DNA of 64,000 bases from a bacterium (GTDB taxonomy: Bacteria > Patescibacteriota > Minisyncoccia > Phycocordibacterales > GWA1-40-21): the NCBI GenBank assembly GCA_037131755.1, contig JBAXQJ010000001.1, positions 16,176 to 80,175 of the forward strand. Direction: 5' to 3'. The number at the start of each line of letters is the position of its first letter. Positions within the stretch are counted from its first letter, which is position 1. The notes below the pieces were generated by a model that made no database searches, was not told the DNA's origin, and worked only from the letters and a program-made list of their open reading frames with translations. The translations under genes were made by a program, and so were the position numbers. Positions 15,899-42,580 of the stretch are shown here, in pieces.

Positions 15899-16154
15899 TT
15901 TTAACCTAATCTTTCTGTATCGACGGTACGTATAAAAATAAACAATCCCATCGTTTATTGTGACAAGTCACTACACGTAAGTGATCTTTTTATGATGAAT
16001 ATATACTTAACCCATATTTCAATAATATCAAAATAGATGATCAATGTCAAATACTAGACAAGAGTTTTGCGTTTACGAAACGCACGTATTATGGAGGATT
16101 TTATTGACTCCCTGACCGACTTACCCCACATAATACAGGCAAATGGAGGTGTTT

Positions 16155-16715
16155 ATGTTCAGCAAATCAAAACCTACGCAAGCCAACGTCCTCAGCCACT
16201 GGTACACTCCTGTTCCGAACTTCAGCATGTCCACCAAGGAATTCTACGACAAGGTGGAGAGAGAGCTTGGAACACAACAAGTGCCTGGCCTTAAAATATC
16301 CCGCCCTGAGCTTTCAGAAGGTGGGCTGTTTGCGGCCAAGCGTCAATATCTGCGCCTGAAACGGGATGACGTGTTGTTTGACATCTGTGCCTGTCCATTT
16401 GGTGTCAATTACTTCTTCTCCTGCCGTTTTGCAGCCACACCTCCTACTGGTCTCAAAGTATTGATTTCAAAGATCATCAACCTGATTCTGGAAAAGCTGA
16501 ATCTACGACTTGTCGATACATATCATAAGGAAGACACCCGTCTTATGTATATGACCGTGGTGGAAGGTGTCGTCAAGAAACTGGTGGAACAGGAAACAGC
16601 GGCCAAAGGCATTAAACTCTTGGATGAATACGAGCATGCTCCAATCCTGGGGGATCTGTATAAGTCGAAAAGAAAGATCTTAGACCAGAACCAAGTTGAG
16701 GTTATTGAGGCATAA
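16155..16715 (+). CDS. Hypothetical protein, first gene of a two-gene cassette with the large TraD/HerA-like ATPase
   Basis: About 186 aa (second ATG after a GGAGGTG Shine-Dalgarno). Its stop is 4 nt before the next start. No recognisable family (...CACPFGVNYFFSCRFAATPP...). Confidence 0.5.
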   Translation: MFSKSKPTQANVLSHWYTPVPNFSMSTKEFYDKVERELGTQQVPGLKISRPELSEGGLFAAKRQYLRLKRDDVLFDICACPFGVNYFFSCRFAATPPTGLKVLISKIINLILEKLNLRLVDTYHKEDTRLMYMTVVEGVVKKLVEQETAAKGIKLLDEYEHAPILGDLYKSKRKILDQNQVEVIEA

Positions 16716-16718
16716 CCA

Positions 16719-19700
16719 ATGGCCTCAATTGATGAGAAGTTCAGTGAGCAGTTCTATCACTGGGAACGGCGAGGGCGGGGCTGGCAGGTTTTTGATGAGC
16801 CAGTTTCACCTGAACCGCCTTTCCGTCCCTTCTATATATCCCCGGATGCCCCCATCATTGATGACGGGGCTCGACCGACTGTTCTGAGTGCCTGGGCGAA
16901 TCGATTGAAAGGTTTGGTTGGCGGAGGTGGACAATCGGTTGCTGTCACCAAAGCTTTACCCTCTGATATTGAAGAGCCCGAACCGCAATCACTGATCCGG
17001 GATGAATTGATTGAACTCCAAGTCGTCCTACCGGTGAATCTGAATATCCGGAGGGATGATTTCGAAGAATTCCTCTTGGCAATGTCGCTTTGTAATGAGC
17101 CGATTACCTTTGAAGTCCTCGGCCTATCCTCCCATATCTCCGTGCAATTGGTTGCACATCCCTCTGATGAGCAAATGGTCATTCAGAGATTGAAGGCCTT
17201 CTTCCCTGAAGCCAGTTTCTTGCCTCGGAAAAACGCACTGATTGATGCTTGGGTGAAAGAGCCAGACAGTTATACCGGGGTGGTTGAATTCGGTTTAGCC
17301 AGACCTTTTATGTTTCCTCTGGCAACTCGGCGAGTGGACCCCTTTGTCGGCATCATTGGGGCGTTGTCGGAACTGACAAATGATGAGTTGGGGTTATTCC
17401 AAGTCATCTTCCAGCCAGTGCAAGCTCCATGGGCAGAAAGCATGCTGGATGCCATTACAGACCATCAAGGCGGGGCTTTGTTTGTTAATGTCCCAGAATT
17501 AACAACAGCTGCCAAAGAAAAAGTATCCAGCCCCATCTATGCCGCCGTCGTGCGTATTGCTACGCAATCCCCATCAATTGAGCGGGCTTGGGAGATTGCC
17601 CGTAATCTATCAGGAGCCCTCACGGTCTTTGCTCATCCCCATGGTAATGAACTAATTCCGCTCCGTAATGATGACTATCCCTTTGATCTGCATATTGAAG
17701 ATGTCTTGCGGCGGCAATCTCGGCGTACCGGGATGCTCCTAAACAGCACGGAATTGGTCGGCTTCGTTCATTTACCATCGGTTGATGTTCGCTCGTCTAA
17801 ACTGGAACGATATACAGTTAAAACCAAACGGGCTCCGCAATCAGTCCGTAAGGATGAAGGGCTATATTTAGGGGACAATTTACATAATGGGGAGGCGGTG
17901 TCAGTCGCCCTGTCACCGGAGCAACGTGTCCGGCATACGCATGTGATTGGTGCTAGTGGTACCGGCAAGTCCACCCTGCTATTCAATCTCATTCGTCAAG
18001 ATATTGAGAATGGTGATGGGGTGGCGGTGCTAGACCCTCATGGCGATCTGGTGGACCAGCTTTTGGGTATTATCCCTGAAAATCGCATTAATGATGTCAT
18101 TTTGCTTGATCCCTCCGATGAGGAATACTCCATCGGCTTCAACATCCTATCCGCCCATTCAGAACTCGAAAAGAACCTGCTGGCCTCAGACTTGGTTTCC
18201 GTCTTCCAGCGCTTGTCCTCCAGTTGGGGTGATCAAATGGGGTCAGTGTTGAATAATGCGATATTGGCTTTCCTCGAAAGCAGCAAGGGTGGGACACTGG
18301 CGGATCTCCGTCGTTTCCTTTTAGAGTCAGATTTTCGGAATGCTTTCCTGGAAACGGTCAATGATCCTGAAGTGGTGTATTACTGGCGCAAGGTCTTCTC
18401 ACAACTGTCCGGTAACAAGTCCATCGGGCCAGTGTTGACTAGATTGGATACTTTTCTCGGGCGGAAACCAATTCGCTATATGGTCAGACAGTCCACCAAC
18501 CGGCTTGATTTCGGGAACATCCTCGATACCGGCAAAATCTTCTTGGCCAAGCTACCGCAAGGTATCGTTGGTCGGGAGAATTCATATTTGCTAGGTACGC
18601 TCCTTGTTTCCAAATTCCAGCAATTAGCAATGGCGCGGCAAAAGCAGGTGGCCGCCAGCCGTAAAGACTTCTGGCTCTATATTGATGAGTTCCATAATTT
18701 TATTACGCCGTCCATGGCTGAAATCTTATCTGGCGCTCGCAAATATCGACTTGGCCTAACTCTGGCCCATCAGGAATTGCGCCAATTACAAAGGGACTCT
18801 GAAGTGGCCAGTGCAGTCTTGTCAAATGCTGGCACACGGATTTGTTTCCGGGTTGGTGATGATGATGCTAAGAAATTAGCTGATGGTTTTTCGCTCTTTG
18901 AAGCTCAAGACTTGCGGAATCTGGACACTGGTAAAGCGGTCTGTCGAGTTGAGCGTAGTGATTATGACTTCAATCTGACCGTCCCTCTACCGGATCAGCT
19001 TGATGAGGAAGCCATGGAGGATCGCCGCCACTCCGTTATCCTGGCCTCTCGCTCCAAATATGCCACCTCTTGCTCAGAGCTTGAAAAAGCTTTCAAGGAG
19101 GCCGCAGAGACTAGACCGGTTATACCGGAACCAAAGAAAAAAGCTCCATTTGTAGTTGTAAAAAGCAAAGGACCGGAACCTACACCGTTACCGATAGAGA
19201 CTCCGCAACCAGTCATTCCACTTGAGAATATTCCGGCTCCTCGACAGACAACCGCCGATCTAGGCCGAGGGGGTGCCCAACATCAGGCGATACAGCAAAG
19301 ACTCAAGGTAGAAGCCGAAGCCGTCGGCTTTCGTGTCATTGTTGAGAAGCCAACCCCTGACGGCGGCAGCATTGATCTAGTCTTGAGTCGGGGCGGAATA
19401 TCCTTGGCTTGTGAAATTGAAGTGACTACTTCAATGGATCATAAGGTGAAGAATGTTTCTAAATGCCTCAAGGGTGGGTATCAGCAAGTCATTGTTATCA
19501 CCCAACAGGAAGGCGATTTGAAGAAACTGAAGATTGCGGTCGATAGCAGTTTGGGAGAAGAAAAGGCCCAGCCTGTCCTATACTTCCTTCCGGATCAGTT
19601 TATTGAATATATCCAGACGATACCGCAAGAGGTCGTGGTGCCGAAACCAGATCAACCGAAAATCCGGCGTGGTTTCAAAGTGCGAACCAACCACATTGCA

Positions 19701-19790
19701 TTATCTCCCCAGGAAATGCAGGCACGAGAGGGTGCGGCGATTGCTGCAATTGCCGAAGCGATGAAAAACGGTTCAACGCAATTTGCCTAA
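16719..19790 (+). CDS. Large P-loop NTPase of the TraD/VirD4/HerA (DUF87-like, FtsK-HerA superfamily) type, with an about 380-aa N-terminal unknown region and a C-terminal putative PD-(D/E)xK nuclease-like domain
   Basis: Walker A HTHVIGASGTGKSTLLFNLI followed by AVLDPHGDL (the coupling-protein/HerA signature). Walker B-like FWLYIDEFHNFITPS. C-terminus GFRVIVEKPTPDGGSIDLVLSRGGISLACEIEVTT resembles a restriction-endonuclease-like D...ExE core. 1023 aa. Confidence 0.55.
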   Translation: MASIDEKFSEQFYHWERRGRGWQVFDEPVSPEPPFRPFYISPDAPIIDDGARPTVLSAWANRLKGLVGGGGQSVAVTKALPSDIEEPEPQSLIRDELIELQVVLPVNLNIRRDDFEEFLLAMSLCNEPITFEVLGLSSHISVQLVAHPSDEQMVIQRLKAFFPEASFLPRKNALIDAWVKEPDSYTGVVEFGLARPFMFPLATRRVDPFVGIIGALSELTNDELGLFQVIFQPVQAPWAESMLDAITDHQGGALFVNVPELTTAAKEKVSSPIYAAVVRIATQSPSIERAWEIARNLSGALTVFAHPHGNELIPLRNDDYPFDLHIEDVLRRQSRRTGMLLNSTELVGFVHLPSVDVRSSKLERYTVKTKRAPQSVRKDEGLYLGDNLHNGEAVSVALSPEQRVRHTHVIGASGTGKSTLLFNLIRQDIENGDGVAVLDPHGDLVDQLLGIIPENRINDVILLDPSDEEYSIGFNILSAHSELEKNLLASDLVSVFQRLSSSWGDQMGSVLNNAILAFLESSKGGTLADLRRFLLESDFRNAFLETVNDPEVVYYWRKVFSQLSGNKSIGPVLTRLDTFLGRKPIRYMVRQSTNRLDFGNILDTGKIFLAKLPQGIVGRENSYLLGTLLVSKFQQLAMARQKQVAASRKDFWLYIDEFHNFITPSMAEILSGARKYRLGLTLAHQELRQLQRDSEVASAVLSNAGTRICFRVGDDDAKKLADGFSLFEAQDLRNLDTGKAVCRVERSDYDFNLTVPLPDQLDEEAMEDRRHSVILASRSKYATSCSELEKAFKEAAETRPVIPEPKKKAPFVVVKSKGPEPTPLPIETPQPVIPLENIPAPRQTTADLGRGGAQHQAIQQRLKVEAEAVGFRVIVEKPTPDGGSIDLVLSRGGISLACEIEVTTSMDHKVKNVSKCLKGGYQQVIVITQQEGDLKKLKIAVDSSLGEEKAQPVLYFLPDQFIEYIQTIPQEVVVPKPDQPKIRRGFKVRTNHIALSPQEMQAREGAAIAAIAEAMKNGSTQFA

Positions 19791-19857: not shown

Positions 19858-20127
19858 CTATACACGGCGGCATTGTCTTCTTATTGCCGCCTCAATCTCC
19901 GCTGGCACCTGCACACCATCACTCTCAATCTGGAAATTGCATACATTGCAACGCATCGCGGCACTTATACTTTCTTCCACGAGCCCCTGATGAACACTCC
20001 AGGTCACTTTAACAGAACCCTTGCATGTAGGACATTCGAACTGCTTCACCGGACTAAGAGTATTACGAATAATTTCTTGATTAAAAGCTGTCAGTATTTC
20101 ATTGGTGTTTTGCGGCATATTTACCAT
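19858..20127 (-). CDS. Small zinc-ribbon protein; candidate immunity protein for the upstream Rhs toxin
   Basis: About 89 aa from the internal Met MVNMPQNT (the long-ORF start at 20214 would overlap the Rhs gene by 94 nt). Contains CPTCKGS...CNVCNF (two CxxC pairs). Sits immediately 3' of the Rhs C-terminal toxin domain, the canonical immunity position. Confidence 0.45.
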   Translation of the reverse strand: MVNMPQNTNEILTAFNQEIIRNTLSPVKQFECPTCKGSVKVTWSVHQGLVEESISAAMRCNVCNFQIESDGVQVPAEIEAAIRRQCRRV

Positions 20128-23100
20128 CCTTTCTTCAAGTAATAACGAATCAAAACCTTCCTCATATATTCCTCCATAATCGGATGGTGCGGGGATGGAA
20201 TACCGCGTTTCCAAAAACGATGATGGAGCTCTTCATGCAATAAGGTCTCTCGAAGAGCCCCAAGAGACTTAAATGCCCGAGGTCCAATTTTTGAAAATGC
20301 ACCGATTTGCGAAAGCCCTAACTGACTAAGTGCCGGAGCAAATTCTGGTGGTTGCATAAACGACAATCCACTAAAGTCACTTTTGATAACTTCAGCAATA
20401 GTTGTCTGGCTTTCAACGAGTGGCACCCCATTATATGAGTTTCCTAACTTTGATTCTTCCTTTGACACATCTTTAAGTATTTCACGTGTGGCGCGTGTGG
20501 TACTTTGCGCAAGATTTCTTAAAGCTTCCTTGGTCGCTTGAATAGATCCGGCCAACGTTACGCCAGGGCTGTATGATGCCCCAACACCAGTACCCGTTAA
20601 CAATACCTGTCCGCCACCTATTAGAGCTCGCGATACGCGATCGATGTCTTTAAGTTTCTGTTGAGTAATTACATCATAACCAAACCCAGATTCATAAAGA
20701 TTAGCGATACCAGTCCAATTGACGATATTGAATGCTATTCCCTGGGAAACTGCCGCTGTCGAATCCCACACACCACCTCTTGCATCCATGCTACGAAGCA
20801 TTATAATCGATGTATTATCAACTGCCTGATTATAAGCGTTACCATTAAAAAGGTCTTTGACTCCTTGCTTGGCCCCGCTTCCCATCTCGATCAAAGATTC
20901 CCCGAGCGAAATGTCAAAGGCATCAGCCTCATCGCCTGAATAACCCTGCCCAAATATCCAAGACAAAGCTGATTCCCCAAGCGGATCAAATTTATTTATG
21001 GGATCGTTTTCACAAAAAGCAGTTAAGTTAATTCCTCCTTTTTCGGCCAGTGGATCACGAGTGATCCACTTGGCGATGGACGGATTGAAAAACCTATAAC
21101 CGAAATAATAGAGTTCTGTTTCGCTGTCATAATATTTGCTTTGGAACCGGAAGGGGCAAACATCACATCGTGAGCCCCATGACCCAACAAGTTTGCCGAA
21201 GGGCGCATAAAGGTAATTTGCCACAATCTTTTTTGTGGCGGCATCAACAACATGCACAATATTTCCGTTATGATCCGCCAGCGGCAGGTAAATATTTGTG
21301 GTTCCAGCATCTATTGCCTTGATTGCAACCAAAGCGCCAACTCCGCCTGACTGGTGATCAAATTTGCCATTTCGTTGACCTTTGAGATCCAGCCCCCATT
21401 GATAGTCACGGGTAGACGTTGTAGTGAGGGTATGGTCAGTAATTGTCTCGTGTATGAGATTCCAGCCATCATAGATAAAGGAATAGGTAAACGTCCCAAC
21501 CCAAGATCCTGGGGACCCGCTGTAGACCTTCTTGGTAGCCCGTCGGCCATCTTGGAAATAGGTATAAGTCTCCCTGATGTTTGGAGTGACACCAACGTTG
21601 ATTACCTCGCGTAATCGCCCTAAAGCATCATAAGAGAAGCGATAGCGGCTATCATTGGTAACTGAAGCACGCGCATCATAAATTGGGCTTTCGGAAGTTT
21701 GCGCGAGGTAAAGGGTTCCCGTTGTGTGGGCGATAACATCATTACTAGACACTGGGTCAAACCAAACTGCGGTGACAATGATATTGGTCGAGATTGCCGC
21801 CGAGGTGTTATCAATAACCAAAGTCGCACGGAACCATTCGCCATTGCGGTCAGTCGGCTGGTAATTGACGGTGATGTTCGCATTGGTGGCCGCGATGCCG
21901 ACAACCTCGACCTTGTTACTCCAAGCTCTGGTTATCTGCACATTCAGATTGTTCGGTGTAAATGTTGGAATAGGAGTCGAGGAGGCAGCTAATCGCCCAT
22001 AGGCGGTCGGATTTCCGATCGAGTCATATGTCGCGCCGAATTGCATGCCATAATACTCTGACCCATCGGCAAAATACCGGCGAGCGGAAATCAATTGCTT
22101 CCGGCTATCATATTGATAATCCCAGTGGGAACCGCTGATATCAATAATTTTGGATATCTGATCCGAGTTAGTGACATAGGAGTAAGCATAATTGGCAATA
22201 TTGCTGCCACTGACCGAAAAGGCAATGTTACTCATTCGGTCATTTGCCAGATCCCAGGTTAAATTTCGTGTGAGGATATCGACGCCCTGAACAGAGGTAA
22301 CAGCAGTAGCGCACAATAAACTGTTTGTGGCATAGATATACCTGACACAGACATCACCGTTACTGATAGAAGAGACCACTGACCGGAAATCATAACTCAG
22401 GGTGGTTTCATTCACGGCCCCGCCTATTACGAACTTTGAACCGTTGCGGTCGTAGTTCAGAGGATTATAAGAATAAGTCAATTCGGCTGGCGGCAAGGCA
22501 TCACCACTGACCGAATTTGTCAGCACCAAACCATCGAGGGAATAGTCAAAGGTATTTGTAGTCCCAGCATGTGTCGCCACAACTGGACGCCCGAGGCGAT
22601 CAATAACCGCTGCGGCCAGCGGACCAGTGGCATCAGAATATGTGATGCTAGCAAGGTCACCAGCCGAATTATAGTTGTGAGTTGCCACCACACTGTTTGC
22701 ATCGGTAAGAGTCAGCAATTGACCATTATCACGATAGGAATAAGTTTCAACGGGTAAACCGCTAATATTCTTTTGAGTAAGATAGCCGGTAGTGGCATCA
22801 TGTATCCATTGGGTATTTACAGCGGTTCCGGCCCGCAAAGTAATCATATTTGTCAGCCGTCCCTGAGAGTCGTACTGGTAAGTGACATCTAACGTGCCAG
22901 TATCGTATTTGCGCTTTAACAATCCACTTGTATAGTAATCATAACGAATTTCACGGCCATCACTGTGACGTACTTTGCTGATAAGTTCAGTACCTGGGTT
23001 GTATGTGAACTTAACAGGGAGTTTTGTCGGATCAGGCAGAATAATTTCGCTGATGCGCCGCTCTGTGTCGCGATTGATTATGGTTGTGCCTAACCGGGAA

Positions 23101-26100
23101 TGTTGAATACTCGACAAAGCCCCCAACCCATCATAGTTGAAAGTTTTTGTCTCCCACAAAATCCCGTCAGAGCCGTAATTCTTTTCCGTCTTAAGCTGCC
23201 ATTTCTCAAAAGCCTGAATAATTTTCGTGCCATCACTTTGGCAATTAGTCACAGAGTAAGAGCCACCAAAACTATAGCCTGAACGGCTGGCTTGATTAGT
23301 ACGGGAAACATCAATCGACAATACTCTTCTGTTATCCAATGAGACCTCCGAGCTCGCCAACATAAATGAGCTAGAGCTGTACATCTGGGGATAAGTGGTA
23401 TAGGCGCATTTAACACCTGATGCAGATACGCTTCGGTTGCGGGTAAGATATCGGTCACTACTGGCCGCCGTAAGTGCCTGATCACCGTTTTGATCTATCC
23501 CGGCGTCTGCCGGCTCATTTTTTCCATTGTAATTCATGACACTTACAATACTGGCTTCATCAACGTCGCCAGCGAAACGGGCCTGCGAGTCATATGACAT
23601 CGTAGCATCACTACTTGCACCTGAATGACGAGAACGGGCCGGTTGACCTAAAAGGTTTAAGTAGGTCTTCTCCCATTCGGTCGCAGCACTTCCGACTAAT
23701 CGAATTTCCTTGGCATAGAACTGTCCGGCTTCAATTCCGTATTCGAATTGCAAGTCAGCTTTGGCGCCTGAACCGGAGATTTCCTTCAGAGATCCATCCA
23801 AGTAATAGTCCTTAATGATCACGGCACCATTTGGTGCTGTTATTGTGCATCGGGTGCCGTATGACGGGTTCGCATAGGAGTAGACGGTAGAGCCGAGCAA
23901 ATCCGTTACCGTGATTGCCCGCCCTAACGCATCGAAAGAGGTGCTAACAGTGCGAGAGGCCCCATCTGCTCCGGATTCCGTTAGCTTGGTAATGTTCAAT
24001 AACGGATCATATTCAAACTGATTGGTAATTCCGGTTCCACCTCGCAAGACCGATTTCAAGGTGCCTTGAGAGTAATAGTCTAAAGTCATCAAGCTACCGT
24101 CAGCTTCAGAAATAGTGGCTGGGCCGAATAAGCTCAAGTTACTATTGGTCGTCGCTGTGCCATCGAGATCAGTTGAGACCAGAAGTCGACCGAATGGATC
24201 AACTGAGGAGATAATACTTTCAAACGTCACCCCGGAATCCGCATCCACTGTCATATTGGTTTCCATGACCCCGAAATTGTTTACCGTATTGGTTTTCGTT
24301 ATTCCGGTACTGATGACAGAACTGGCCGCCAGTCGCCCAAAGGATGTGAAAACGTTATTCGATGTGCCCAACACCTGGTAAGTCAAAACAGCGCTCTCGG
24401 CTGGATTTTTCGCAAAGATCAAAAGACCATTGGTAATACCACCACTTGCGAATACGTTGGTGCTTACAAGGTTCCCCGCACCATTCCAACTGCCACTGGA
24501 GTTAGTGCATTGCTGAATAATAGTCTGGGTTGATCCTGAGTAGGAATACAAGGTGAGACCGATCAACGTGGCATCATAAAGATTAGTGACTGCCCGTGGC
24601 CGCTCAATCATATTCGTTATGTTTGCAGTATCGCCAGAATTGGCTGGATATCCGTAACCGGTCGAACGTGTCGAACCATTACCGACAGGGGTCGCCTCCG
24701 TTACAATCCATCCGGTACTTGGGTCATAGGAGTAGTCAGTGTAAGTCCCGTCCGGGAAAGTAACTTTCTTGATTTTTGCTTGCTTAGGTAAGCCATTCGT
24801 ATAGCGCCCAACGGCTGTATCATATTCATTTGTAACCGCTTTGGAATCACCATTCACGGTTCGGGAATAAACGACTGGATGATTGTCGGCATTGAATGAG
24901 ATGCTTTCTGTCAAATTCCCGAAATCGTAATAACTAGAGGATAACGTCACGGTCCGCGCACTACCCGCGGGAGCGGTCTGGGTTCGGGTAACAGTACCCC
25001 AAGGATATGTAATGGTGTTGCCGGAAATAGAGGCATTGGATTTGTCGATACCGGTAATCCCGGATTTGGATATTCCAGAAAACATTTTGCTGGAATCTGA
25101 AGCTAATGTAGTGGTTATGGTTTGGCTTAAATCCTTGGAGGCATACGATACCTGGCTGACTAAGCCACTGGTCATGGTGAGAGTGACCTTGTAGCGAGCA
25201 CTATCCGCCGTGTTGGGGAAATTAATGGTTGAGCCAGGGATGGAGCTGGAAGTAACTTTCGACGAACTGCCAGCCATATTGGTGACGTTGGTAATGCCAC
25301 CATCAAATTGATGAATAACCCCCGACTCATAATACAGGTTGAATTTCAGGTCGGTATTATTCGTCGGTGTTAAGTCTCGAAGAATATAAGTTCTATTTGA
25401 GTTGATTCCGGTCGGATATCCGACAGGACTGAATGTTGAAGCGGCACTATCCCAAGGAAAGTCAAAGATTACCACATTTCCCCTTGGCCGAATTACCGCC
25501 GCCAACTTATTAGTTCGTGTATTTGATTTCACGGCACCGCTTTGCAAGATGCGAGTTCTTACACTCAAGGTTTGATAGGGTCCATCAGCATCCGTGGTGT
25601 ATGGTGTCAGATATTGAAAGGGCAGATTAGTTGTTCCACCTTGCGCTATATATGCATGGACTGGTAAACCAGCATACCACGCAGGCGTTGAGGCTAACGG
25701 GACAATTATTTGTGGTTGATCCCGGTCATCGTTGAATGTCGCTACTCCGGTATCATTGCCAAAGGCATTGAGATCAACTCCCGGATCAACCACATCATCC
25801 CGATCAGTGTCAGGCTCCTCAACACAGGGATGTATGGTCGGAGGAAGGTTAGTCGGGAAATAGTATTGGATTATAGTATTTACGTCGTAATCGTGCATGA
25901 CATATCCAGCAGTGTTTGAGCCAATCGGGATTGGTGCGGTATTAAAGACGCTGGCACCGATCGCCACTGAAGACGTAACGCCACCACTATAGGTTGTTGG
26001 CCCAGACAACCTATAGGAATTTGTATAGTAAAGGCCCGTGCCTAAATCTGAGAAATATACATTGGTAGACGACATGTAGGGCCATACACCGTAGTACCAA

Positions 26101-26858
26101 TCCACTTTATGCAGACGTCCGGTCCACATGCCCGTTGTGGCGAAATAATCCCATTGACGGACACCTGATATATCCCATCTATGTTGCGCGGAGTTCGTTG
26201 TTAAGGTTACTGTATTATAGAGGGGGTGGTAGACATTGGTTGTTGAAGCAGTCGACGGCCACATAGCGGCAAAGTTTGTAATTGCCTGAGCCATTGAAGG
26301 GCCATTCGTTGAAGCCGTACGATAATTGGCGGTATTGGAACTGGTAAAAGTAATACCACGAAGAGTGTGGGTAAGCAGATTAAGACAGGCCCAAACTTGA
26401 GTCTGTATCCCGTGGTCAACAGCCATCCATAAATGTATTGGTGCATTTGTCGCCCATTGTGAAAATCCAGCCGCCGCGTGCAGACTATTTGCTGTCCAGA
26501 AATTATCAGCAAAAACCATGTCAGGATGCGCTGTATAATATGGAGAAAAATCACCCGATGCGTCCGCGTGTGTGCTATCTACAAAATATCTTCCTAAGTA
26601 ATCTATCTTCATCGCGAGATTACTGTAGTCTTGATATGGATAGATGTATGTCGGCTGTTCGTTATAGCTGGATGATTTCCAAAACGCCATGCTCCTTTCA
26701 TTGTAGGCATCATAAGCCCTTTTGAGATCATTAGTTAAATCGACCCATTCTTGAGTCGCCGGCCAATTTGTATAATTTGTGGCAGCATGCACAGTACCAG
26801 CAGAAAACCAGCAAATCAAAGCGACCAATCCAACAAACAAACTAATATTTTTTCTCAT
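20121..26858 (-). CDS. Rhs/YD-repeat polymorphic toxin (2245 aa) with a signal peptide and a C-terminal variable toxin domain carrying an HExxH motif
   Basis: N-terminal signal MRKNISLFVGLVALICWFSAGTVHA. Many YD repeats (YDSQGRLTNM, YTYNPGTEL, YDYYTSGLLKRKYD, YSYRDNGQL...). RHS core end RFFNPSIAKWITRDPLAEKGGINLTAFCENDPINKFDPLGES (PxxxxDPxGL), then an about 370-aa tip ending ...LLHEELHHRFWKRGIPSPHHPIMEEY. Confidence 0.85.
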   Translation of the reverse strand: MRKNISLFVGLVALICWFSAGTVHAATNYTNWPATQEWVDLTNDLKRAYDAYNERSMAFWKSSSYNEQPTYIYPYQDYSNLAMKIDYLGRYFVDSTHADASGDFSPYYTAHPDMVFADNFWTANSLHAAAGFSQWATNAPIHLWMAVDHGIQTQVWACLNLLTHTLRGITFTSSNTANYRTASTNGPSMAQAITNFAAMWPSTASTTNVYHPLYNTVTLTTNSAQHRWDISGVRQWDYFATTGMWTGRLHKVDWYYGVWPYMSSTNVYFSDLGTGLYYTNSYRLSGPTTYSGGVTSSVAIGASVFNTAPIPIGSNTAGYVMHDYDVNTIIQYYFPTNLPPTIHPCVEEPDTDRDDVVDPGVDLNAFGNDTGVATFNDDRDQPQIIVPLASTPAWYAGLPVHAYIAQGGTTNLPFQYLTPYTTDADGPYQTLSVRTRILQSGAVKSNTRTNKLAAVIRPRGNVVIFDFPWDSAASTFSPVGYPTGINSNRTYILRDLTPTNNTDLKFNLYYESGVIHQFDGGITNVTNMAGSSSKVTSSSIPGSTINFPNTADSARYKVTLTMTSGLVSQVSYASKDLSQTITTTLASDSSKMFSGISKSGITGIDKSNASISGNTITYPWGTVTRTQTAPAGSARTVTLSSSYYDFGNLTESISFNADNHPVVYSRTVNGDSKAVTNEYDTAVGRYTNGLPKQAKIKKVTFPDGTYTDYSYDPSTGWIVTEATPVGNGSTRSTGYGYPANSGDTANITNMIERPRAVTNLYDATLIGLTLYSYSGSTQTIIQQCTNSSGSWNGAGNLVSTNVFASGGITNGLLIFAKNPAESAVLTYQVLGTSNNVFTSFGRLAASSVISTGITKTNTVNNFGVMETNMTVDADSGVTFESIISSVDPFGRLLVSTDLDGTATTNSNLSLFGPATISEADGSLMTLDYYSQGTLKSVLRGGTGITNQFEYDPLLNITKLTESGADGASRTVSTSFDALGRAITVTDLLGSTVYSYANPSYGTRCTITAPNGAVIIKDYYLDGSLKEISGSGAKADLQFEYGIEAGQFYAKEIRLVGSAATEWEKTYLNLLGQPARSRHSGASSDATMSYDSQARFAGDVDEASIVSVMNYNGKNEPADAGIDQNGDQALTAASSDRYLTRNRSVSASGVKCAYTTYPQMYSSSSFMLASSEVSLDNRRVLSIDVSRTNQASRSGYSFGGSYSVTNCQSDGTKIIQAFEKWQLKTEKNYGSDGILWETKTFNYDGLGALSSIQHSRLGTTIINRDTERRISEIILPDPTKLPVKFTYNPGTELISKVRHSDGREIRYDYYTSGLLKRKYDTGTLDVTYQYDSQGRLTNMITLRAGTAVNTQWIHDATTGYLTQKNISGLPVETYSYRDNGQLLTLTDANSVVATHNYNSAGDLASITYSDATGPLAAAVIDRLGRPVVATHAGTTNTFDYSLDGLVLTNSVSGDALPPAELTYSYNPLNYDRNGSKFVIGGAVNETTLSYDFRSVVSSISNGDVCVRYIYATNSLLCATAVTSVQGVDILTRNLTWDLANDRMSNIAFSVSGSNIANYAYSYVTNSDQISKIIDISGSHWDYQYDSRKQLISARRYFADGSEYYGMQFGATYDSIGNPTAYGRLAASSTPIPTFTPNNLNVQITRAWSNKVEVVGIAATNANITVNYQPTDRNGEWFRATLVIDNTSAAISTNIIVTAVWFDPVSSNDVIAHTTGTLYLAQTSESPIYDARASVTNDSRYRFSYDALGRLREVINVGVTPNIRETYTYFQDGRRATKKVYSGSPGSWVGTFTYSFIYDGWNLIHETITDHTLTTTSTRDYQWGLDLKGQRNGKFDHQSGGVGALVAIKAIDAGTTNIYLPLADHNGNIVHVVDAATKKIVANYLYAPFGKLVGSWGSRCDVCPFRFQSKYYDSETELYYFGYRFFNPSIAKWITRDPLAEKGGINLTAFCENDPINKFDPLGESALSWIFGQGYSGDEADAFDISLGESLIEMGSGAKQGVKDLFNGNAYNQAVDNTSIIMLRSMDARGGVWDSTAAVSQGIAFNIVNWTGIANLYESGFGYDVITQQKLKDIDRVSRALIGGGQVLLTGTGVGASYSPGVTLAGSIQATKEALRNLAQSTTRATREILKDVSKEESKLGNSYNGVPLVESQTTIAEVIKSDFSGLSFMQPPEFAPALSQLGLSQIGAFSKIGPRAFKSLGALRETLLHEELHHRFWKRGIPSPHHPIMEEYMRKVLIRYYLKKGW

Positions 26859-26910
26859 ATTATCTTCCGTTATTCGCTAATTTCAGAAAATTATTCCGCA
26901 AAGCATCCGT

Positions 26911-29900
26911 TCAACGCATAGGTGTGATTGTCTGAAGCCGCAGTACATTGTTTGTATCACTAACCGCTGACTTTGTGGGGTTGGCCCCAATCAAGTACTC
27001 CTGCAAATTGCTCAAGCCATCTCCATCAGCATTACCGCTAGCATTGTTCGTAAGGTTGCCGAAGTATCGCATTTCCCAAGCATCGGGTAGCCCATCGCCA
27101 TCGCTATCACCAAAAGCATCAAGAATATTGATGGTGAAAGAATCATTAGGAATACAAACCGCAGAGCCAATCAGTTGATCTAATTGCAATGTGACTGTTT
27201 TCGTTGGTTCGCGTAGATCGTTCGTCAGGATTAAAATTGAAACCAGCTGATTTGTCTGCCCTGGGGAAAATACAATGTTCTGGTTGGTGAAGGAATAATT
27301 CAGGCCGTTCACCGCCGTACCACCTATCATATAGAGACGCACCTGAATTGTATTGGTTGACGGCGGATAGATTCTAACGGGTATGTTAGTACTGGAGGCA
27401 GTCTCCATGACGGTAAGATCGTGGCTGGGGAAGAAGACGACAGGTGGCTTGGAGGCCGGATTTGTCGAATCTGTACCCAATCGGATTTCATCGGCATTGC
27501 TTACGCCGTCACCATCGAAGTCATCGCTCGGCAGGACATGTTCCACTTTTTCGATATTATCATTCGTATTGGCATTAACGATTTTCATTTCCTCATAATC
27601 CGGAAGGCCATCCCCATCGGTATCGGGATCGGTAAGTGTCACATTGATGCCAGTAACCCTCCCGGTAATAACAAGTAAACTGTTTGTATATGTCCCAGTT
27701 GCTTCCCAGGAATCATTTGAACCGTTACCGTTTGAATCGCGAAATGCTTTGACCCATCGTGCTGACGGCGGAATGTTCGGGATCTGATACGGCCCCTGCG
27801 CCAAACGAACCACCGACATATCCTTTTCCCAAGAAGTCGCATTGGTCGCCGCCAAAATTACAATCGGGCCAGTCTGCGCGCCCGAGTAAAGCACGTATCC
27901 TGAGACGCTGGGCGGATCTTGGGAATTTGTCGGCGAAGTATGGTTTTGAAATTCCCGCCAAGCAGACAGTCCATCTCCATCCGCATCCGCCCCAAGTTCA
28001 TAAGCCGCCATCACATCATTGATAGTCCATCCACCGCCACTTATCCGAATATCATCTATCATTCCGGAAAATACGTTGGTGACCGCCCCGCCTGACGTGG
28101 CACCGATCCGGAGTGAGTTTGTACTGTGCTCAATACCTCCAAGCGCCAGCCCAAATACATAATTAGTCGTCGCTACGCTTACTCCGTTGACATAAAGGTC
28201 ATGATTCCCACTAGCGTATGTACCCGTTATGTGCAGGGGTACGTCGGAAGTAAGGATGCAGGAGTATCTTAAAGTTTTTGCTCCACTGGCGCATATAGTG
28301 AAGGCAAGTCCACCATTCTCGTAGCCAAGACTATAACCAGTTGTGCCGTTTGGAATTCGCTTGCTGACGAACATCGCCGAACTGCCACTCATATAGAAGT
28401 GATCAGGCACAATCCACAGACTGATAGCAACGCTTTCCGTCTTCAGGTTGGCATTGTCGGCCACCTCAACATAGGAATTACTGCCATTAAATATTAGGGC
28501 GTTGCTGACAAGACCACTACACCAGCTATTGCTGGCAAAACCATATAGGGTGCCATTATTGGCGTTGCCGGACGAATCGAGCGCATTAGATCCGCTGTTT
28601 TCATCGAACTGCAACCACGCGGTCAAGCCATCTGCACCACCCCGAGTCGAATCCATGCCATAGAAAACTTCCCACCAATCGGATACGCTATCTCCATCAT
28701 TATCCGGGTCGACAAGAGTGACATTCCTGCCAGTGTGATTATCATCTAAGAAAATTGGATTTCCTGAATCGCTACCCCATGCCTCCCAAATTGTCGGCAG
28801 GTTATCGCCACTAGAGTCGCGCCAGGCGCGTATCCAGTAATCGGTATTTGGCGGTAAGTGTGTTATGACAAATGAACCGGTATTTGAAATAATATTGGCA
28901 TGAGCCCAAGACCAATCAACACCGTTGGTGCAAGCGACTACATAAAACACACCGGTTTGGGGACCAGTGTAGATCACGTTTCCTTCGATATTCCAGGGGT
29001 GACTCAAGCTGTTCGTGGGATTGGTATTCACATCATATTCTTCTTGATTAGTGTATTCATCACCATCGGAATCGACATTACTACTGGTATTCGTCGTGCT
29101 GCCGAAATACTGAATTTCCCACCAATCGGCCAAGCCATCGCTATCAAGGTCGGGATCAGTAAGATTGATAGCTTGTCCGGCAAGGCGGTTAGTGATGATT
29201 ATGGAGAGGTTAGTTAGGATTGCTTGGGCCTCAGCGGCATTATTGGTACTATTCCCGTTGGTATCGATCCAAGATTTGAGCCAATAATTTGTCTGTTCCA
29301 AATCACTGATTCGATAGGCCATGGGGAAATTACAAACGGCTGATGTGTAGCTATGCGCCGTTGACCAACTATTGGAACTGGTTACAGCAATAACCCAAAC
29401 GGTGCCGGTCTGGCGGCCTGAATAAGTTATTGTGCCAAGTACATTGGCAGGATCATTAGGATCAAGCGGATTATGTCCATGCGCGATTTCCCAGCCATCC
29501 CCACAACCATCATCATCCGTATCGAATTTATTGGCATCAGTACCTAAAGAGAGCTCGCCCAGAACGTAAGGACTTCCGTTTGTAGTGATGCCAGTCGGAT
29601 ATACATTTGTTGTCACAATTCCGCTATTTCCGTCAACCAGACCATCGCTATCACTGTCCATCGCATCAGGGTTACTTCGATAAATCAGAGTTTCGCGACC
29701 GTCATTAATTCCGTCACCGTCTGTATCCTCTGTACTGCCAACCGCATAGAACCGGACTGGAATATCTGCGCCGTTAGTGGCTGATGTATCGACCCACCAC
29801 AAACTATTAGTCCCGGCAGTAACCAGATTGGTGTTTAGAATGGTCCAACTATGGGTCATAAGATTGGATGAGGCGAACATTTCCAGCGGATAACTGAAGG

Positions 29901-30741
29901 AGGAGGGATAATCAACCCTAACGAGTTTTCCGGAAGTAACCAGGCTAATTTCCGAGATCACGATATTTGTATCGGCTGCTGGTAATCTCATCATGGACAT
30001 ACCGCCTGAAGACATGGATTTTGACAATGAAGAAGTTGTGGACTGGGATATAAAATCCCATAACGAGGCAGCGGCATTTTCGGCATAAATATCAATATAG
30101 CTGTCTGGAATCAGCGCTATATCGATTTCAACATGAGAAGGATCGAGCCAAGCCTCAATTTCGTCGCGCTTTTGTTCAGAACAGTCTTTCCTGTAAATTT
30201 CAGCGTGTATTTTCTTCGCTATCCAATACGGATCATAGTCACTTCGGGGTTTGAAGACATAGAAGACCTTGCCGTCCGCATCCAGTACTTGTATTTCGCG
30301 AGTTTCTTTAACTTCACGTACCTTTAGGTGATATATCGGACTGCCGTTTTTTATTTCATACACTAAACCCTTTGTAAATGACTCGGGGAAGGACTTGGGG
30401 TTGAAGGAATACAGGCCAGCCGAAAAAGATACCGGCTTAGTCATTCCAGGAACGAACAGCTGAATACAGCTTTCTTGGAATTCAAATAGCCGCTCAACTA
30501 AAAATGCGGGGCTATCGGCAAAATTAGTCGATAGTTCTTCACTGATTCTCGCTTGCCGTTCGTCAATGATCTTACGAGTTATTCCGGTTAAGGCCCAGAC
30601 CGTAACGCATGCCAGAAACAAACTGACAATAGCGGTGAATGAAATTGCGCGCATTCGAACTCTACCCGTTTTTCCTGTCCAAGGCATATTCAATCCTTTC
30701 TCTATTAATCCGCTCCGCGCCAAAAAAAGAGGCGCGGACAT
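26911..30741 (-). CDS. Large secreted/membrane-anchored surface protein with TSP3-like calcium-binding DxDxDG repeats and a LamG-like (concanavalin A-type lectin) domain
   Basis: N-terminal TM ISFTAIVSLFLACVTVWAL. Repeats DTDGDGINDGRE, DSDSDGLVDG, DTDDDGCGDGWE, DPDLDSDGLADWWE, DPDTDGDGLPDYEE, DSDGDGLPDAWE. LamG-like segment LQFDENSGSNALDSSGNANNGTLYG...ALIFNGSNSYVEVADNANL. 1276 aa, 52 nt upstream of the Rhs gene on the same strand. Confidence 0.65.
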   Translation of the reverse strand: MSAPLFLARSGLIEKGLNMPWTGKTGRVRMRAISFTAIVSLFLACVTVWALTGITRKIIDERQARISEELSTNFADSPAFLVERLFEFQESCIQLFVPGMTKPVSFSAGLYSFNPKSFPESFTKGLVYEIKNGSPIYHLKVREVKETREIQVLDADGKVFYVFKPRSDYDPYWIAKKIHAEIYRKDCSEQKRDEIEAWLDPSHVEIDIALIPDSYIDIYAENAAASLWDFISQSTTSSLSKSMSSGGMSMMRLPAADTNIVISEISLVTSGKLVRVDYPSSFSYPLEMFASSNLMTHSWTILNTNLVTAGTNSLWWVDTSATNGADIPVRFYAVGSTEDTDGDGINDGRETLIYRSNPDAMDSDSDGLVDGNSGIVTTNVYPTGITTNGSPYVLGELSLGTDANKFDTDDDGCGDGWEIAHGHNPLDPNDPANVLGTITYSGRQTGTVWVIAVTSSNSWSTAHSYTSAVCNFPMAYRISDLEQTNYWLKSWIDTNGNSTNNAAEAQAILTNLSIIITNRLAGQAINLTDPDLDSDGLADWWEIQYFGSTTNTSSNVDSDGDEYTNQEEYDVNTNPTNSLSHPWNIEGNVIYTGPQTGVFYVVACTNGVDWSWAHANIISNTGSFVITHLPPNTDYWIRAWRDSSGDNLPTIWEAWGSDSGNPIFLDDNHTGRNVTLVDPDNDGDSVSDWWEVFYGMDSTRGGADGLTAWLQFDENSGSNALDSSGNANNGTLYGFASNSWCSGLVSNALIFNGSNSYVEVADNANLKTESVAISLWIVPDHFYMSGSSAMFVSKRIPNGTTGYSLGYENGGLAFTICASGAKTLRYSCILTSDVPLHITGTYASGNHDLYVNGVSVATTNYVFGLALGGIEHSTNSLRIGATSGGAVTNVFSGMIDDIRISGGGWTINDVMAAYELGADADGDGLSAWREFQNHTSPTNSQDPPSVSGYVLYSGAQTGPIVILAATNATSWEKDMSVVRLAQGPYQIPNIPPSARWVKAFRDSNGNGSNDSWEATGTYTNSLLVITGRVTGINVTLTDPDTDGDGLPDYEEMKIVNANTNDNIEKVEHVLPSDDFDGDGVSNADEIRLGTDSTNPASKPPVVFFPSHDLTVMETASSTNIPVRIYPPSTNTIQVRLYMIGGTAVNGLNYSFTNQNIVFSPGQTNQLVSILILTNDLREPTKTVTLQLDQLIGSAVCIPNDSFTINILDAFGDSDGDGLPDAWEMRYFGNLTNNASGNADGDGLSNLQEYLIGANPTKSAVSDTNNVLRLQTITPMR

Positions 30742-34318: not shown

Positions 34319-35521
34319 TTGGCATCATATGAGGCATCACCCAACAGGCAAAGCATGACACAGAGCAATTCAACCTCAACTGCGCCCGGGCAACTTTTGG
34401 GGTACATATTGCAGTTTCCTCGGGCTCTTTGCCGCCTCCTTCAAGCCGGAGTGGGTGGTGCAGTTGGGATTGAGCTTATCGGCGATGTTACGGCATTTCT
34501 GGCCAACGGTGCCGTAATCAATGAGGAAGACAAATCGTCAACGACCACCAACCCTTTAACGGATCGCTCGACTGACCTTTGGAAAACCTTCTACAATTGG
34601 ATTAAACAGATTGATGATGGAGCCATTGACGTTACCAAAACGAGTTTTGTCCTGTATACAAACTGTTCTGGTCGTCCTGCGCTTGTTAATAAATTCAACG
34701 CAGCGAAAACACCCGCAGATGTGCATGCCGCGATTCAGGCGGCAATTACTGAACTGAAAGACACTTCACACTCCCATGATATTTGGGTTTACTACGATTT
34801 TGTGATTAATAAGAAACTGAACACTTTTGAGAAGTTGTTGCTAAATTTTGAATTATTGGTCGGTGTTGATGGTGCTCATGATGATGTCCGTCGAGAATTG
34901 AAGAGTAAGTTTATTCCTGACCACTCTATTCAGCTGGTTTCAGACAACATATGCGGATGGTTTCAAGAAATTGTTTCAAATAAATTAAAAGCGAAGATAC
35001 CAGCTGTTATCACGTTTGAAGAATTAGATCATCAGATTGCAGTCCTTTTGGAGCGATTGCGGCAGAAAGAACTCGTAGATTTTGCGGCTACGGAACTCGC
35101 TTTAGAGAACAAGATTGCACCCGCGCTACGGCAGCGGCCAGTATTTATCAAACAACTCGATCTGATCAAGTTATCAGACGAGATGAAAATTCAAGCAGTC
35201 TGCGATTATCTTCGCGCTGATTATAATCGCCACCGTTGGATCGAGAGCGAGATTCTTGACGAAACAACAGCCAAAGACTTTGAAAAACGTCTCTATTCCT
35301 TCTGGCAGACTGAACATAGGAAGACGGAATTACTTCATTTGAATTTAGCGGAAGAAACGCGCGGCGAGCTGCTTCTCGGCGAGTGTTCCTCGCGACAAGA
35401 GTTGATTCGGGGTGAGCCAACACCTGACCGAACCGTGGCTGGCACTTATCACGCCTTGGCCGAGTTAATGCAACTTGGTTGGCATCCTAAATGGTCAAGC
35501 CTTCTTCAGGAGAAGCTGTGA
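34319..35521 (+). CDS. Hypothetical protein (400 aa), unknown family
   Basis: Long ORF with moderate GC that is translationally coupled (GTGA overlap) to the next ORF. No recognisable motif. Confidence 0.45.
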   Translation: MASYEASPNRQSMTQSNSTSTAPGQLLGYILQFPRALCRLLQAGVGGAVGIELIGDVTAFLANGAVINEEDKSSTTTNPLTDRSTDLWKTFYNWIKQIDDGAIDVTKTSFVLYTNCSGRPALVNKFNAAKTPADVHAAIQAAITELKDTSHSHDIWVYYDFVINKKLNTFEKLLLNFELLVGVDGAHDDVRRELKSKFIPDHSIQLVSDNICGWFQEIVSNKLKAKIPAVITFEELDHQIAVLLERLRQKELVDFAATELALENKIAPALRQRPVFIKQLDLIKLSDEMKIQAVCDYLRADYNRHRWIESEILDETTAKDFEKRLYSFWQTEHRKTELLHLNLAEETRGELLLGECSSRQELIRGEPTPDRTVAGTYHALAELMQLGWHPKWSSLLQEKL

Positions 35522-35970
35522 GCAGCCTAGCGCAAGAAGTAAAAATTTGGAATACGCCTGTTCTAGGTGCGTATTTGCTCTGGCGTTTTACATGTGGGCA
35601 TTGTGCACATCATCCGCAAGGCGATGGCCCGGTGGTTCTGCTCCACTTCCTTGCTGCCGCAATTCTCACAAGCCCACCACTCTGCGATCCCATTAACAAT
35701 CATCGGGCTAATCTACAGTCTTACGTTCGCTCTTTTGATGAGAAGGGTTCGACCGATCTCTTGATGGGAATTCAGAAGAGGGTTGAACTGCGACGGCATT
35801 ACACACTTGATGCTATCGATATCGCAATTGCAAATGGCCTTTTAGTTTGGGATATACCACGCGCACGACTCTATTCTCGCAAGGTCACACAAAAGCTTAG
35901 TCGTGGTTGTGCTCTTGGCAGGAATCGAACCTGCATTTCTCCCTTCGCAGGGGAGTGTCCTATCCATTGA
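35491..35970 (+). CDS. Hypothetical protein (about 150 aa); its 3' end runs into a minus-strand tRNA-like gene, so the C-terminus is probably over-extended
   Basis: ORF overlapping the previous gene. A likely GTG start at about 35518 overlaps the upstream stop. The last about 60 nt coincide with the tRNA at 35910-35981. Confidence 0.35.
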   Translation: MVKPSSGEAVSSLAQEVKIWNTPVLGAYLLWRFTCGHCAHHPQGDGPVVLLHFLAAAILTSPPLCDPINNHRANLQSYVRSFDEKGSTDLLMGIQKRVELRRHYTLDAIDIAIANGLLVWDIPRARLYSRKVTQKLSRGCALGRNRTCISPFAGECPIH

Positions 35971-35981
35971 ACGACAAGGGC
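35910..35981 (-). tRNA. tRNA-Arg-like, anticodon GCG (unusual), 72 nt
   Basis: Manual cloverleaf on the minus strand: acceptor GCCCTTG/CAAGAGC (one C.A mismatch at 3:70); D-arm GTTC-AATGGATA-GGAC; anticodon stem CTCCC/GGGAG with loop CTGCGAA; T-arm GCAGG-TTCGATT-CCTGC; discriminator A; no encoded CCA. The D-arm is nearly identical to tRNA-Arg(TCT) at 43507. Confidence 0.6.
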
Positions 35982-42032: not shown

Positions 42033-42577
42033 GCGCAAATTTATTAACTGAAAAACAGAAAATTTTTGTCAAAAACGAATTCCGCCTGCGCCTAGCGGTG
42101 ACAGTGGTCTTTTTGGTGTTTTTGACTTCGGTCAACTATCTATCATACCTGATCCCTTATTATATTTCCGTCGTTAAAAAGGACCGGTTGGTAGCTGAAC
42201 AGTTTGCCGAAGTGATAACGGTGGAAAACAAGGAAAATAGCGGCAGCAGCATCACGCAAACTGTGAGGAGGACAAATGACATGATGAAATTGGTTGAAAT
42301 TTATGGCCAGCCGGCTTTGGTGATTTCGGAACAGATAGATAAAATCATCAGCAATAAGAATTCCGGAATCGTCATTAACAAGATATCCTCAAATTATCTC
42401 CAGCCGACAGACATGCAGATTAATATTTCCGGTCGGGCAAAAACCAGGGACAATCTGACCGTTTTTCTCCAGACGCTCAAAAGCAAGGCCGCCTTTTATG
42501 ATGTGAAATACCCAGTTTCCGATTTCTTGAAAAGCAACGATATTGATTTTACGATAAATATCCGGGCAAAAAAATAA
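42029..42577 (+). CDS. pilN: PilN-like fimbrial assembly protein (single N-terminal TM)
   Basis: 182 aa. The start overlaps the pilM stop by 4 nt. N-terminal TM LAVTVVFLVFLTSVNYLSYLI. Confidence 0.5.
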   Translation: MSANLLTEKQKIFVKNEFRLRLAVTVVFLVFLTSVNYLSYLIPYYISVVKKDRLVAEQFAEVITVENKENSGSSITQTVRRTNDMMKLVEIYGQPALVISEQIDKIISNKNSGIVINKISSNYLQPTDMQINISGRAKTRDNLTVFLQTLKSKAAFYDVKYPVSDFLKSNDIDFTINIRAKK

Positions 42578-42580
42578 GCT

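Follow-up and report, generated by a model that had tools for sequence, protein, structure and literature searches.

What a 2245-aa Rhs protein is made for, which cells it would act on and how its producer would be protected are questions raised by a locus at 19858-30741 of contig stretch JBAXQJ010000001.1, of which 64,000 nt were analysed (the window). By open reading frame (ORF) listing and translation, three co-oriented ORFs were found there on the minus strand, in exact agreement in coordinates and lengths with those reported in an earlier note on this DNA. We put at about 0.8 the probability that they form a three-gene Rhs polymorphic-toxin operon, consisting of a toxin with a Tox-MPTase5 tip, a cognate zinc-ribbon (Zn-ribbon) immunity gene and a surface partner. 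The domain identities, the boundary and polymorphism of the tip, the pairing of toxin and Zn-ribbon gene and the conservation of the upstream gene are directly supported; we infer that the Rhs protein is exported and cleaved, that its tip is an active peptidase and that the small protein gives immunity by binding, and also what the partner does and which cell is the target. The three-gene set recurs on independent assemblies of three samples. Its features are as follows.

26911-30741 (-): LamG/TSP3/Calx-beta ORF, 1276 aa as the longest ORF
20121-26858 (-): Rhs/YD-repeat polymorphic toxin, 2245 aa (Pfam, NCBIfam, relatives)
26784-26858 (-): predicted Sec signal peptide of the Rhs protein, aa 1-25 (MRKNISLFVGLVALICWFSAGTVHA; then ATNY), from sequence reading and the hydrophobic N-termini of relatives
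24759-26783 (-): family-specific N-terminal region, aa 26-700 (conservation among relatives; no Pfam match)
21210-24758 (-): YD/Rhs repeat shell, approximately aa 700-1883 (RHS_repeat, YD_repeat_2x; boundaries approximate)
20976-21209 (-): Rhs-associated core (plug and autoprotease region), aa 1884-1961, ending DPLG (TIGR03696, solved-structure matches)
20439-20975 (-): putative pre-toxin linker module, aa 1962 to about 2140, common to proteins with other toxins
20124-20423 (-): Tox-MPTase5 toxin domain, aa 2146-2245, with HEELH at nt 20223-20237, aa 2208-2212 (Pfam, HMMER, alignment, AlphaFold2)
19858-20127 (-): Zn-ribbon immunity candidate, open frame 19858-20214, 86 aa from ATG 20118 or 89 aa from ATG 20127

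Judged by its sequence, the large protein is a Rhs/YD-repeat polymorphic toxin, with shell repeats, core, tip polymorphism and a 3' partner all present. Matches were found to RHS_repeat (PF05593, E 2.5e-10, aa 1308-1345), to YD_repeat_2x (TIGR01643, E 1.3e-4, aa 1733-1752) and to Rhs_assc_core (TIGR03696, aa 1884-1961), the last with 75.8 bits against a cut-off of 32.5. A homologue search returned about ten Rhs relatives of 1950-2512 aa, which align to aa 1-1961 or aa 329-1961 with 28-47% identity and match TEN_YD-shell; the closest named relative comes from a Kiritimatiellae metagenome-assembled genome (MAG). All of them part ways directly after DPxG, where unrelated tips of 244-324 aa begin, with TNT, Tle1-like, Endonuclea_NS_2 and Lipase_3 domains among them. 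A constant N-terminus and core followed by unrelated tips after DPxG is the defining behaviour of polymorphic toxins. The gene next 3' of the relative with the Endonuclea_NS_2 tip is a SUKH/SMI1 immunity gene.

In the translation of the window protein the end of the core reads ...NDPINKFDPLGES, and the strings NKFDPLGES and LLHEELHH are both present. The core had been said to end at the canonical DPxGL boundary; DPLG was confirmed, but the residue that follows is E and not the canonical L. The tip, previously put at about 370 aa, measures 284 aa after DPLG. The core region aligns with the solved type VI secretion system (T6SS) Rhs effectors Tse15, RhsA-type, Tse5 and Salmonella Rhs and with the TcC proteins YenC2 and TccC2, and several of these alignments stop at query residue 1961, which corresponds to the end of the cleaved core constructs. 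Cleavage of the chain by the core at DPLG|E is probable from the analogy to Rhs and TcC proteins of solved structure.

The N-terminus of the Rhs protein is predicted to be a general secretory (Sec) signal peptide, a reading made from the sequence and its relatives and not by a predictor program. Every full-length relative has a hydrophobic N-terminus, and the conserved motif SYTNWP..EW..LTN follows directly. Within the family-specific region, the relatives agree over a helical domain at aa 26-165, differ from one another over aa 165-329, and are conserved again from PDTDRDD near aa 350. No Pfam family matched aa 26-700, and an AlphaFold2 model of this region from 9 sequences reached a predicted local distance difference test (pLDDT) score of 50, which made it unusable.

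No homologue of the 284-aa tip came up in a word-indexed search, and exhaustive HMMER searching against 1.8 billion representatives was needed. This gave 128 matches, which divide the tip into two modules (tip residues 1-180 and 185-284); when metagenomes were scanned for sequences close to the tip, 2 loci only were obtained. The first module reappears with 36-47% identity in proteins that carry different end toxins (P0026-P0028, P0031, P0062, P0064), one of which, P0027, has a TNT toxin after it. By these sequence matches it looks like a pre-toxin linker that is uncatalogued in Pfam. An identity as PT-TG was considered for this module and rejected; the match was sub-threshold, and nine proteins that share the module gave no PT-TG match.

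The second module stands at the extreme C-terminus of about 90 proteins that range from 76 to 6327 aa in length, and its consensus is ..T.VHEELHHRWW.RG....HH....F...I.RY.R.RGW. Pfam assigns it to Tox-MPTase5 (PF15641) at aa 2152-2227 with 30.4 bits against a gathering cut-off of 27.3 (E 4.2e-7), and the HEExH residues H63, E64, E65 and H67 are invariant in 28/28 aligned sequences. An AlphaFold2 model of the domain built from that alignment had a pLDDT of 95 and an alpha+beta topology of helix, three strands, short helix, HExxH helix and final helix. The top-ranked Foldseek matches in the Protein Data Bank (PDB) were selecase, SPRTN, PprI/IrrE, jannalysin, BlaR1 and BepA, with a best E of 0.075 and template modelling (TM) scores of 0.45-0.55, and a profile search of the toxin alignment against PDB sequences gave non-significant matches only (SPRTN, E 0.35). 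Tox-MPTase1-5 have been described as small zincins distantly related to Wss1 (Zhang et al. 2012, PMC3482391), and the presence of minimal zincins at the top of the Foldseek list agrees with that description. The domain resembles the minigluzincins selecase and jannalysin and Wss1/SPRTN in its size of about 100 aa and in its helix/three strands/HExxH helix order; it differs in that its matches to them are non-significant (E 0.075 or worse, TM 0.45-0.55) and its third ligand is not established. Score and motif thus place the module in Tox-MPTase5, and the model is suggestive of a zincin-like fold. The proposal that the LLHEELHH tip may be a metallopeptidase-like toxin domain is accordingly borne out as far as a Pfam match above threshold, an invariant HEExH and a confident alpha+beta model with minimal zincins as its nearest neighbours can support it.

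Small standalone Tox-MPTase5 proteins were also seen, namely P0029 (213 aa, with its own signal peptide) and a 126-aa protein at L074 484-1139. Tox-MPTase5 was found as well on contigs assigned to archaeal MAGs (L058, L060; a Woesearchaeota MAG and an unclassified archaeon).

Some polymorphic-toxin metallopeptidase domains act as releasing peptidases (Zhang et al. 2012, PMC3482391), and the lack of a significant structural match and the unclear third metal ligand would suit either such a processing role or a metal-dependent enzyme of another activity. A protease toxin fits better with a domain that lies at the extreme C-terminus, where toxins are placed, that has its own conserved immunity-type partner, and that exists in small standalone secreted forms (P0029, L074); moreover, the Rhs core would already supply release. 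We therefore regard a HEExH domain that is not a protease toxin as improbable.

The small ORF encodes a CPTC...CNVC zinc ribbon and has no signal peptide. That it lies directly 3' of the Rhs gene was confirmed, whereas the overlap of its start with the Rhs stop, also claimed before, holds only from ATG 20127; the start given by gene callers is ATG 20118, 2 nt past the Rhs stop and preceded by AGGA. A word-indexed search with this ORF found only itself, and its Pfam matches were to generic zinc ribbons below threshold (the Elf1 and TFIIS ribbons, Lar, DUF7351). The toxin alignment was used for a genome scan, which gave 65 Tox-MPTase5 loci in other genomes, 63 of them scorable for the next ORF. 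They span Streptomyces and other Actinomycetota, Lachnospiraceae, Myxococcota, Planctomycetota, Proteobacteria, Anaerolineae and two archaeal MAGs. A CxxC...CxxC ORF was present at the toxin stop, usually overlapping it, in 55/63 loci, and two more loci had degenerate homologues. This ORF accompanies the toxin domain whatever lies N-terminal to it, be it Rhs, the 126-aa standalone form or proteins of more than 6000 aa. In one archaeal locus, L058, the gene after the toxin looks Rhs-like and is not a Zn ribbon.

The small ORF of the window was tied to this partner family in several ways. A hidden Markov model (HMM) of the partner ORFs was run against the 746 window ORFs of at least 40 aa and matched this ORF alone (E 1.6e-5; still 6e-5 when short forms were left out of the model). 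With hhalign, the 22-sequence partner alignment matched it at 91.5% probability (E 8.7e-7) over the ribbon and the adjoining ESDG..P.EI..AI segment, and the family pattern of CxxC...CxxC followed by E-x-D-G..P..(I/V)R is present in it. The common partner form has 130-150 aa; the window ORF is a short form made of an N-terminal helix and the ribbon, as in L057, L063 and L074. Short-form ORFs that follow toxins in two Anaerolineae MAGs match it in pairwise BLASTP with E 1e-8, and in L074, a soil metagenome contig, a 92-aa ribbon ORF comes after the gene of the 126-aa toxin and overlaps it. The partner family as a whole passed no Pfam or NCBIfam cut-off, and Tox-MPTase5 stands without an immunity protein in the 2012 table (PMC3482391).

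That the partner follows the toxin domain and has no signal peptide is what would be expected if immunity protein and target were both cytoplasmic. The earlier note had named a lack of conservation of this ORF next to related tips as an outcome that would overturn its reading; the ORF was instead found at the typical immunity position and conserved beside related tips in about 57/63 unrelated loci. Position and conserved pairing thus support its reading as an immunity gene with a putative protective function.

A chaperone, an adaptor or a small regulator for toxin folding, loading or expression might also be encoded beside a toxin. The weak matches of the ORF, all to generic zinc-ribbon families, would suit this, as would its lack of the second domain seen in the common form. 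Such a role is nevertheless very unlikely, since the ORF tracks the toxin domain across all N-terminal delivery architectures and a 3' position with start/stop overlap is the canonical immunity site. Rhs adaptors such as EagR and DUF4123 are encoded upstream of the Rhs gene.

In the long-form partners (L007-L071 loci) the Zn ribbon is fused to a domain that resembles the C-terminal domain of ribosomal protein L7/L12. PF00542 matched it below threshold (E 1e-3, 7e-3), and hhalign against Escherichia coli L7/L12 gave 90.7% probability (E 1.2e-6). This domain could hint at the target of the toxin.

The pairing also bears on the kind of cell that would be attacked. An Rhs protein could be aimed at a eukaryotic host or prey, as are Tc (ABC) insecticidal toxins, or could act like teneurin-like adhesins, in which case the small ORF would have nothing to do with immunity. 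The matches of the core to YenC2 and TccC2 are in keeping with this, as are LamG, TSP3 and Calx-beta, which are adhesion-type domains, and large secreted proteins in which RHS and TSP3 modules occur together have been reported from MAGs of the Planctomycetota-Verrucomicrobiota-Chlamydiota (PVC) group (PMC12057145). No TcA, SpvB or TcdB-mid domain was found with Pfam, however, and relatives bear typical antibacterial tip/immunity pairs such as the endonuclease with SUKH. The cognate Zn-ribbon gene, moreover, almost always follows the toxin across Streptomyces, Lachnospiraceae, Myxococcota and others, and this near-constant presence implies a risk of self-intoxication and thus a bacterial target. 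A eukaryotic target is given only a slim chance.

For the upstream gene, the probable start is M30 (30654; 1247 aa) or M19 (1258 aa) and not that of the full 1276-aa ORF, and 52 nt separate the gene from the Rhs start. Promoter and terminator scans gave results no better than shuffled sequence. The protein matches Laminin_G_3 (E 2.7e-16), TSP3_bac (E 4e-18) and Calx-beta (E 7e-9) in Pfam, and is laid out as an N-terminal hydrophobic signal/anchor helix, a domain here called X (aa 231-371), TSP3 repeats, LamG (aa 752-901), Calx-beta (aa 1098-1208) and a TSP3 tail. A co-oriented gene lies directly upstream of the Rhs start in 9/9 related loci for which upstream sequence was available; the gap is 4-52 nt in 7/9, 12 nt in P0003 and 144 nt in P0012. 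This gene has TSP3, LamG or Calx-beta domains in 7/9, and the genes beyond the pair are not conserved. By BLAST, the non-repetitive domain X has 39-42% identity to the 383-aa partner in L073, and the C-terminal Calx-beta/TSP3 block has 40-45% identity over 243-371 aa to the partners in L004 and L077. A C-terminal TP[LM]xR tail, ...ITPMR at window 26911-26945 (-), recurs as ...TPLNR and ...TPLQR in the upstream genes of L073 and L076; as a sequence motif it may be a sorting or interaction signal.

It had been suggested that the LamG/calcium-repeat protein may belong to the same unit, and the homologous TSP3/LamG/Calx-beta gene directly upstream in related Rhs loci agrees with that suggestion. 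The alternative, that the gene is a mere neighbour whose position was inherited in a lineage rich in such proteins, is less likely but a serious contender. The upstream proteins vary widely in length (383-1276 aa) and domain set, the partners in L004 and L006 are of RCC1 type and beta-helix type, respectively, and much of the BLAST similarity falls in repetitive TSP3 motifs. Inherited order sits less well with Rhs proteins that are only 28-47% identical and yet keep the upstream gene in every locus, with flanking genes that are not conserved, and with a domain X and TP[LM]xR tail that are common to the partners. The upstream protein is, on this sequence evidence, probably a genuine partner, for which surface retention or adhesion to the target may be proposed.

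The route of delivery was considered next to the known systems. No PAAR, VgrG, adaptor, SpvB, TcdB-mid, two-partner secretion (TPS) or filamentous haemagglutinin (FHA) domain was found in the Rhs protein with Pfam and NCBIfam, and no T6SS, TcA or CdiB gene among the neighbouring window ORFs scanned. Three assignments were rejected on these grounds. A T6SS Rhs effector would have a PAAR, VgrG or adaptor domain where this protein has a predicted signal peptide; a Tc toxin would have SpvB, TcdB-mid or a TcA-type A subunit, and Pfam found none in the Rhs or the upstream protein; contact-dependent inhibition (CDI; CdiA/CdiB, a type V secretion system) would show TPS, FHA, a VENN pre-toxin or CdiB, absent from the Rhs protein and the scanned neighbours. 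The predicted Sec signal peptide implies another export route, and no hallmark of T6SS, Tc or CDI was found in these scans.

Likeness to these systems is nevertheless substantial. The window protein shares with the T6SS Rhs effectors Tse15, RhsA, Tse5, RhsP and Salmonella Rhs (PDB 8uy4, 7q97, 8cp6, 8h8a, 8qjb) the YD shell, a plug/autoprotease core ending in DPxG, a variable toxin that is probably encapsulated and a 3' candidate immunity gene, and differs in the lack of PAAR, VgrG and adaptor domains and in its predicted Sec signal peptide. With the Tc cocoons TcB-TcC (YenC2, TccC2) it shares a homologous Rhs core (E 3e-8 to 5e-6), probable encapsulation and autoproteolysis of the toxin, and a large co-encoded partner; it differs in the absence of SpvB, TcdB-mid and a TcA-type partner, and the candidate immunity gene of the window has no counterpart in Tc loci. 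The closest description is that of Rhs toxins with a signal peptide only and a Tox-MPTase5 tip, classed as type II secretion system ('T2SS') toxins (Zhang et al. 2012, Biol Direct 7:18, PMC3482391), with which the window protein has in common the signal peptide, RHS repeats, Rhs core and C-terminal HEELH domain. The window goes beyond that class in three respects: the toxin domain is paired with a Zn-ribbon gene across genomes, the Rhs N-terminus includes a long region particular to the family, and the gene upstream is conserved. Tox-MPTase5 was listed in 2012 from Actinobacteria and gamma-proteobacteria only; here it was also found in Firmicutes, Myxococcota, Planctomycetota, and Chloroflexi-type and archaeal MAGs.

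Taken as a mechanism, the Rhs protein would be exported via Sec and its YD-repeat shell would fold around its own C-terminal 284 aa, which would be freed by the probable cut at DPLG|E. The payload would then be the linker module and the 100-aa Tox-MPTase5, a putative minimal zincin-like metallopeptidase with a HEExH motif, which probably cleaves a conserved cytoplasmic protein of a neighbouring bacterium. The 86-aa Zn-ribbon protein would stay in the cytoplasm as the cognate immunity protein and is likely to bind the peptidase and inhibit it in producer and kin cells. For the TSP3/LamG/Calx-beta protein, membrane-anchored or secreted, the probable task is to keep the Rhs protein on the cell surface or to attach to the target.

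Several points speak against this proposal. The Pfam score for Tox-MPTase5 exceeds the cut-off by only 3 bits. No third zinc ligand could be assigned, the downstream HH being not universal in the 28-sequence alignment, and no Foldseek match in the PDB reached E <=1e-3, so that the case for a zincin fold is made by the ranking of the matches, the motif and Pfam and not by a significant structural match. The literature searched held no biochemical or experimental paper on any Tox-MPTase5. The small ORF has no counterpart of the C-terminal domain seen in the common long form, and its similarity to the immunity family is modest (about 20 bits) for a class of protein, the Zn ribbons, that draws spurious matches. 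A Sec-exported protein of 240 kDa would still have to pass an outer membrane. For the upstream protein, BLAST similarity is inflated by the repetitive TSP3 motifs, and LamG/TSP3 proteins are abundant in PVC bacteria, where adjacency could partly reflect shared ancestry.

The class of Rhs toxins is already very large and well known, and the locus is in itself unsurprising. It does provide a candidate toxin/immunity pair for Tox-MPTase5, a domain predicted in 2012 that has had neither biochemical characterisation nor an assigned immunity protein. What is new is modest, namely the uncatalogued Zn-ribbon (and L7/L12-like) partner family, the conserved TSP3/LamG partner and the uncharacterised N-terminal region, the last in a lineage with no evident T6SS; the partner gene and this region may explain how diderm PVC-type bacteria without a T6SS deploy Rhs toxins. 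A bolder proposal joins these points: the N-terminal region and the TSP3-tailed partner would constitute a new Sec-dependent display or delivery route, independent of T6SS, Tc and CDI, in Kiritimatiellota-like PVC bacteria, and the Zn-ribbon proteins an uncatalogued immunity family in which L12 mimicry points to the translation machinery as target. As a whole it is speculative, and we think it rather unlikely to hold in every part.

Orphan toxin-tip/immunity cassettes, for which a search downstream had been advised, were not found within the window; it holds no orphan copy of the Rhs core, tip or immunity gene. In the Kiritimatiellae MAG GCA_028706615.1, the Rhs gene with a Tle1-like tip is followed 3', at L004 15536-17734, by an overlapping 134-aa ORF, a 110-aa orphan YD-shell fragment and two more ORFs, which is a classic orphan tip/immunity array of the kind that the window is without.

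To judge from the genes around it, the Rhs locus sits within a defence island, of which the following features were identified.

7616-9367 (-): Gabija GajB (UvrD helicase), PADLOC E 1e-264 to 8e-264
9360-11450 (-): Gabija GajA (OLD-type ATPase/TOPRIM), PADLOC E 3e-274
11669-14587 (+): MmeI-like type IIG restriction-modification gene, with all five MmeI Pfam domains
16719-19790 (+): HerA/TraD/VirB4-like ATPase, 1023 aa (TrwB_AAD_bind, DUF87; PADLOC mad8 E 8e-19)
34319-35521 (+): LmuA-like/ABC-3C CTD7 protein, PADLOC LmuA E 4e-49
35909-35981 (-): tRNA-Arg, adjoining the LmuA-like gene and a 159-aa MC3 protein (34319-35970 (+))

The Gabija system is complete (7616-11450 (-)). A gene similar to the MmeI-like one is found at L072 9784-12642, about 4 kb from the Rhs relative P0010. 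The HerA/TraD-like ATPase gene is convergent with the candidate immunity gene and is preceded by a 190-aa ORF that has no family (pair 16143-19790); it is possibly a defence or conjugation remnant. The LmuA-like/MC3/tRNA-Arg site may be the edge of the Rhs-containing island, whose flanks are housekeeping genes: an amidase, a Mur ligase, RuvA, peptide deformylase, a PilM-type pilus/T2SS gene, six tRNAs and a P-type ATPase.

The earlier note had remarked on the locus as unusual for a reduced genome, a premise for which the window gives no indication. An ice-binding-like protein (PF11999, E 9e-66) is encoded at 51303-52919 (+) and a PilM-led trio of pilus or T2SS-like genes at 40947-43141 (+), which fit a free-living diderm and not a reduced genome.

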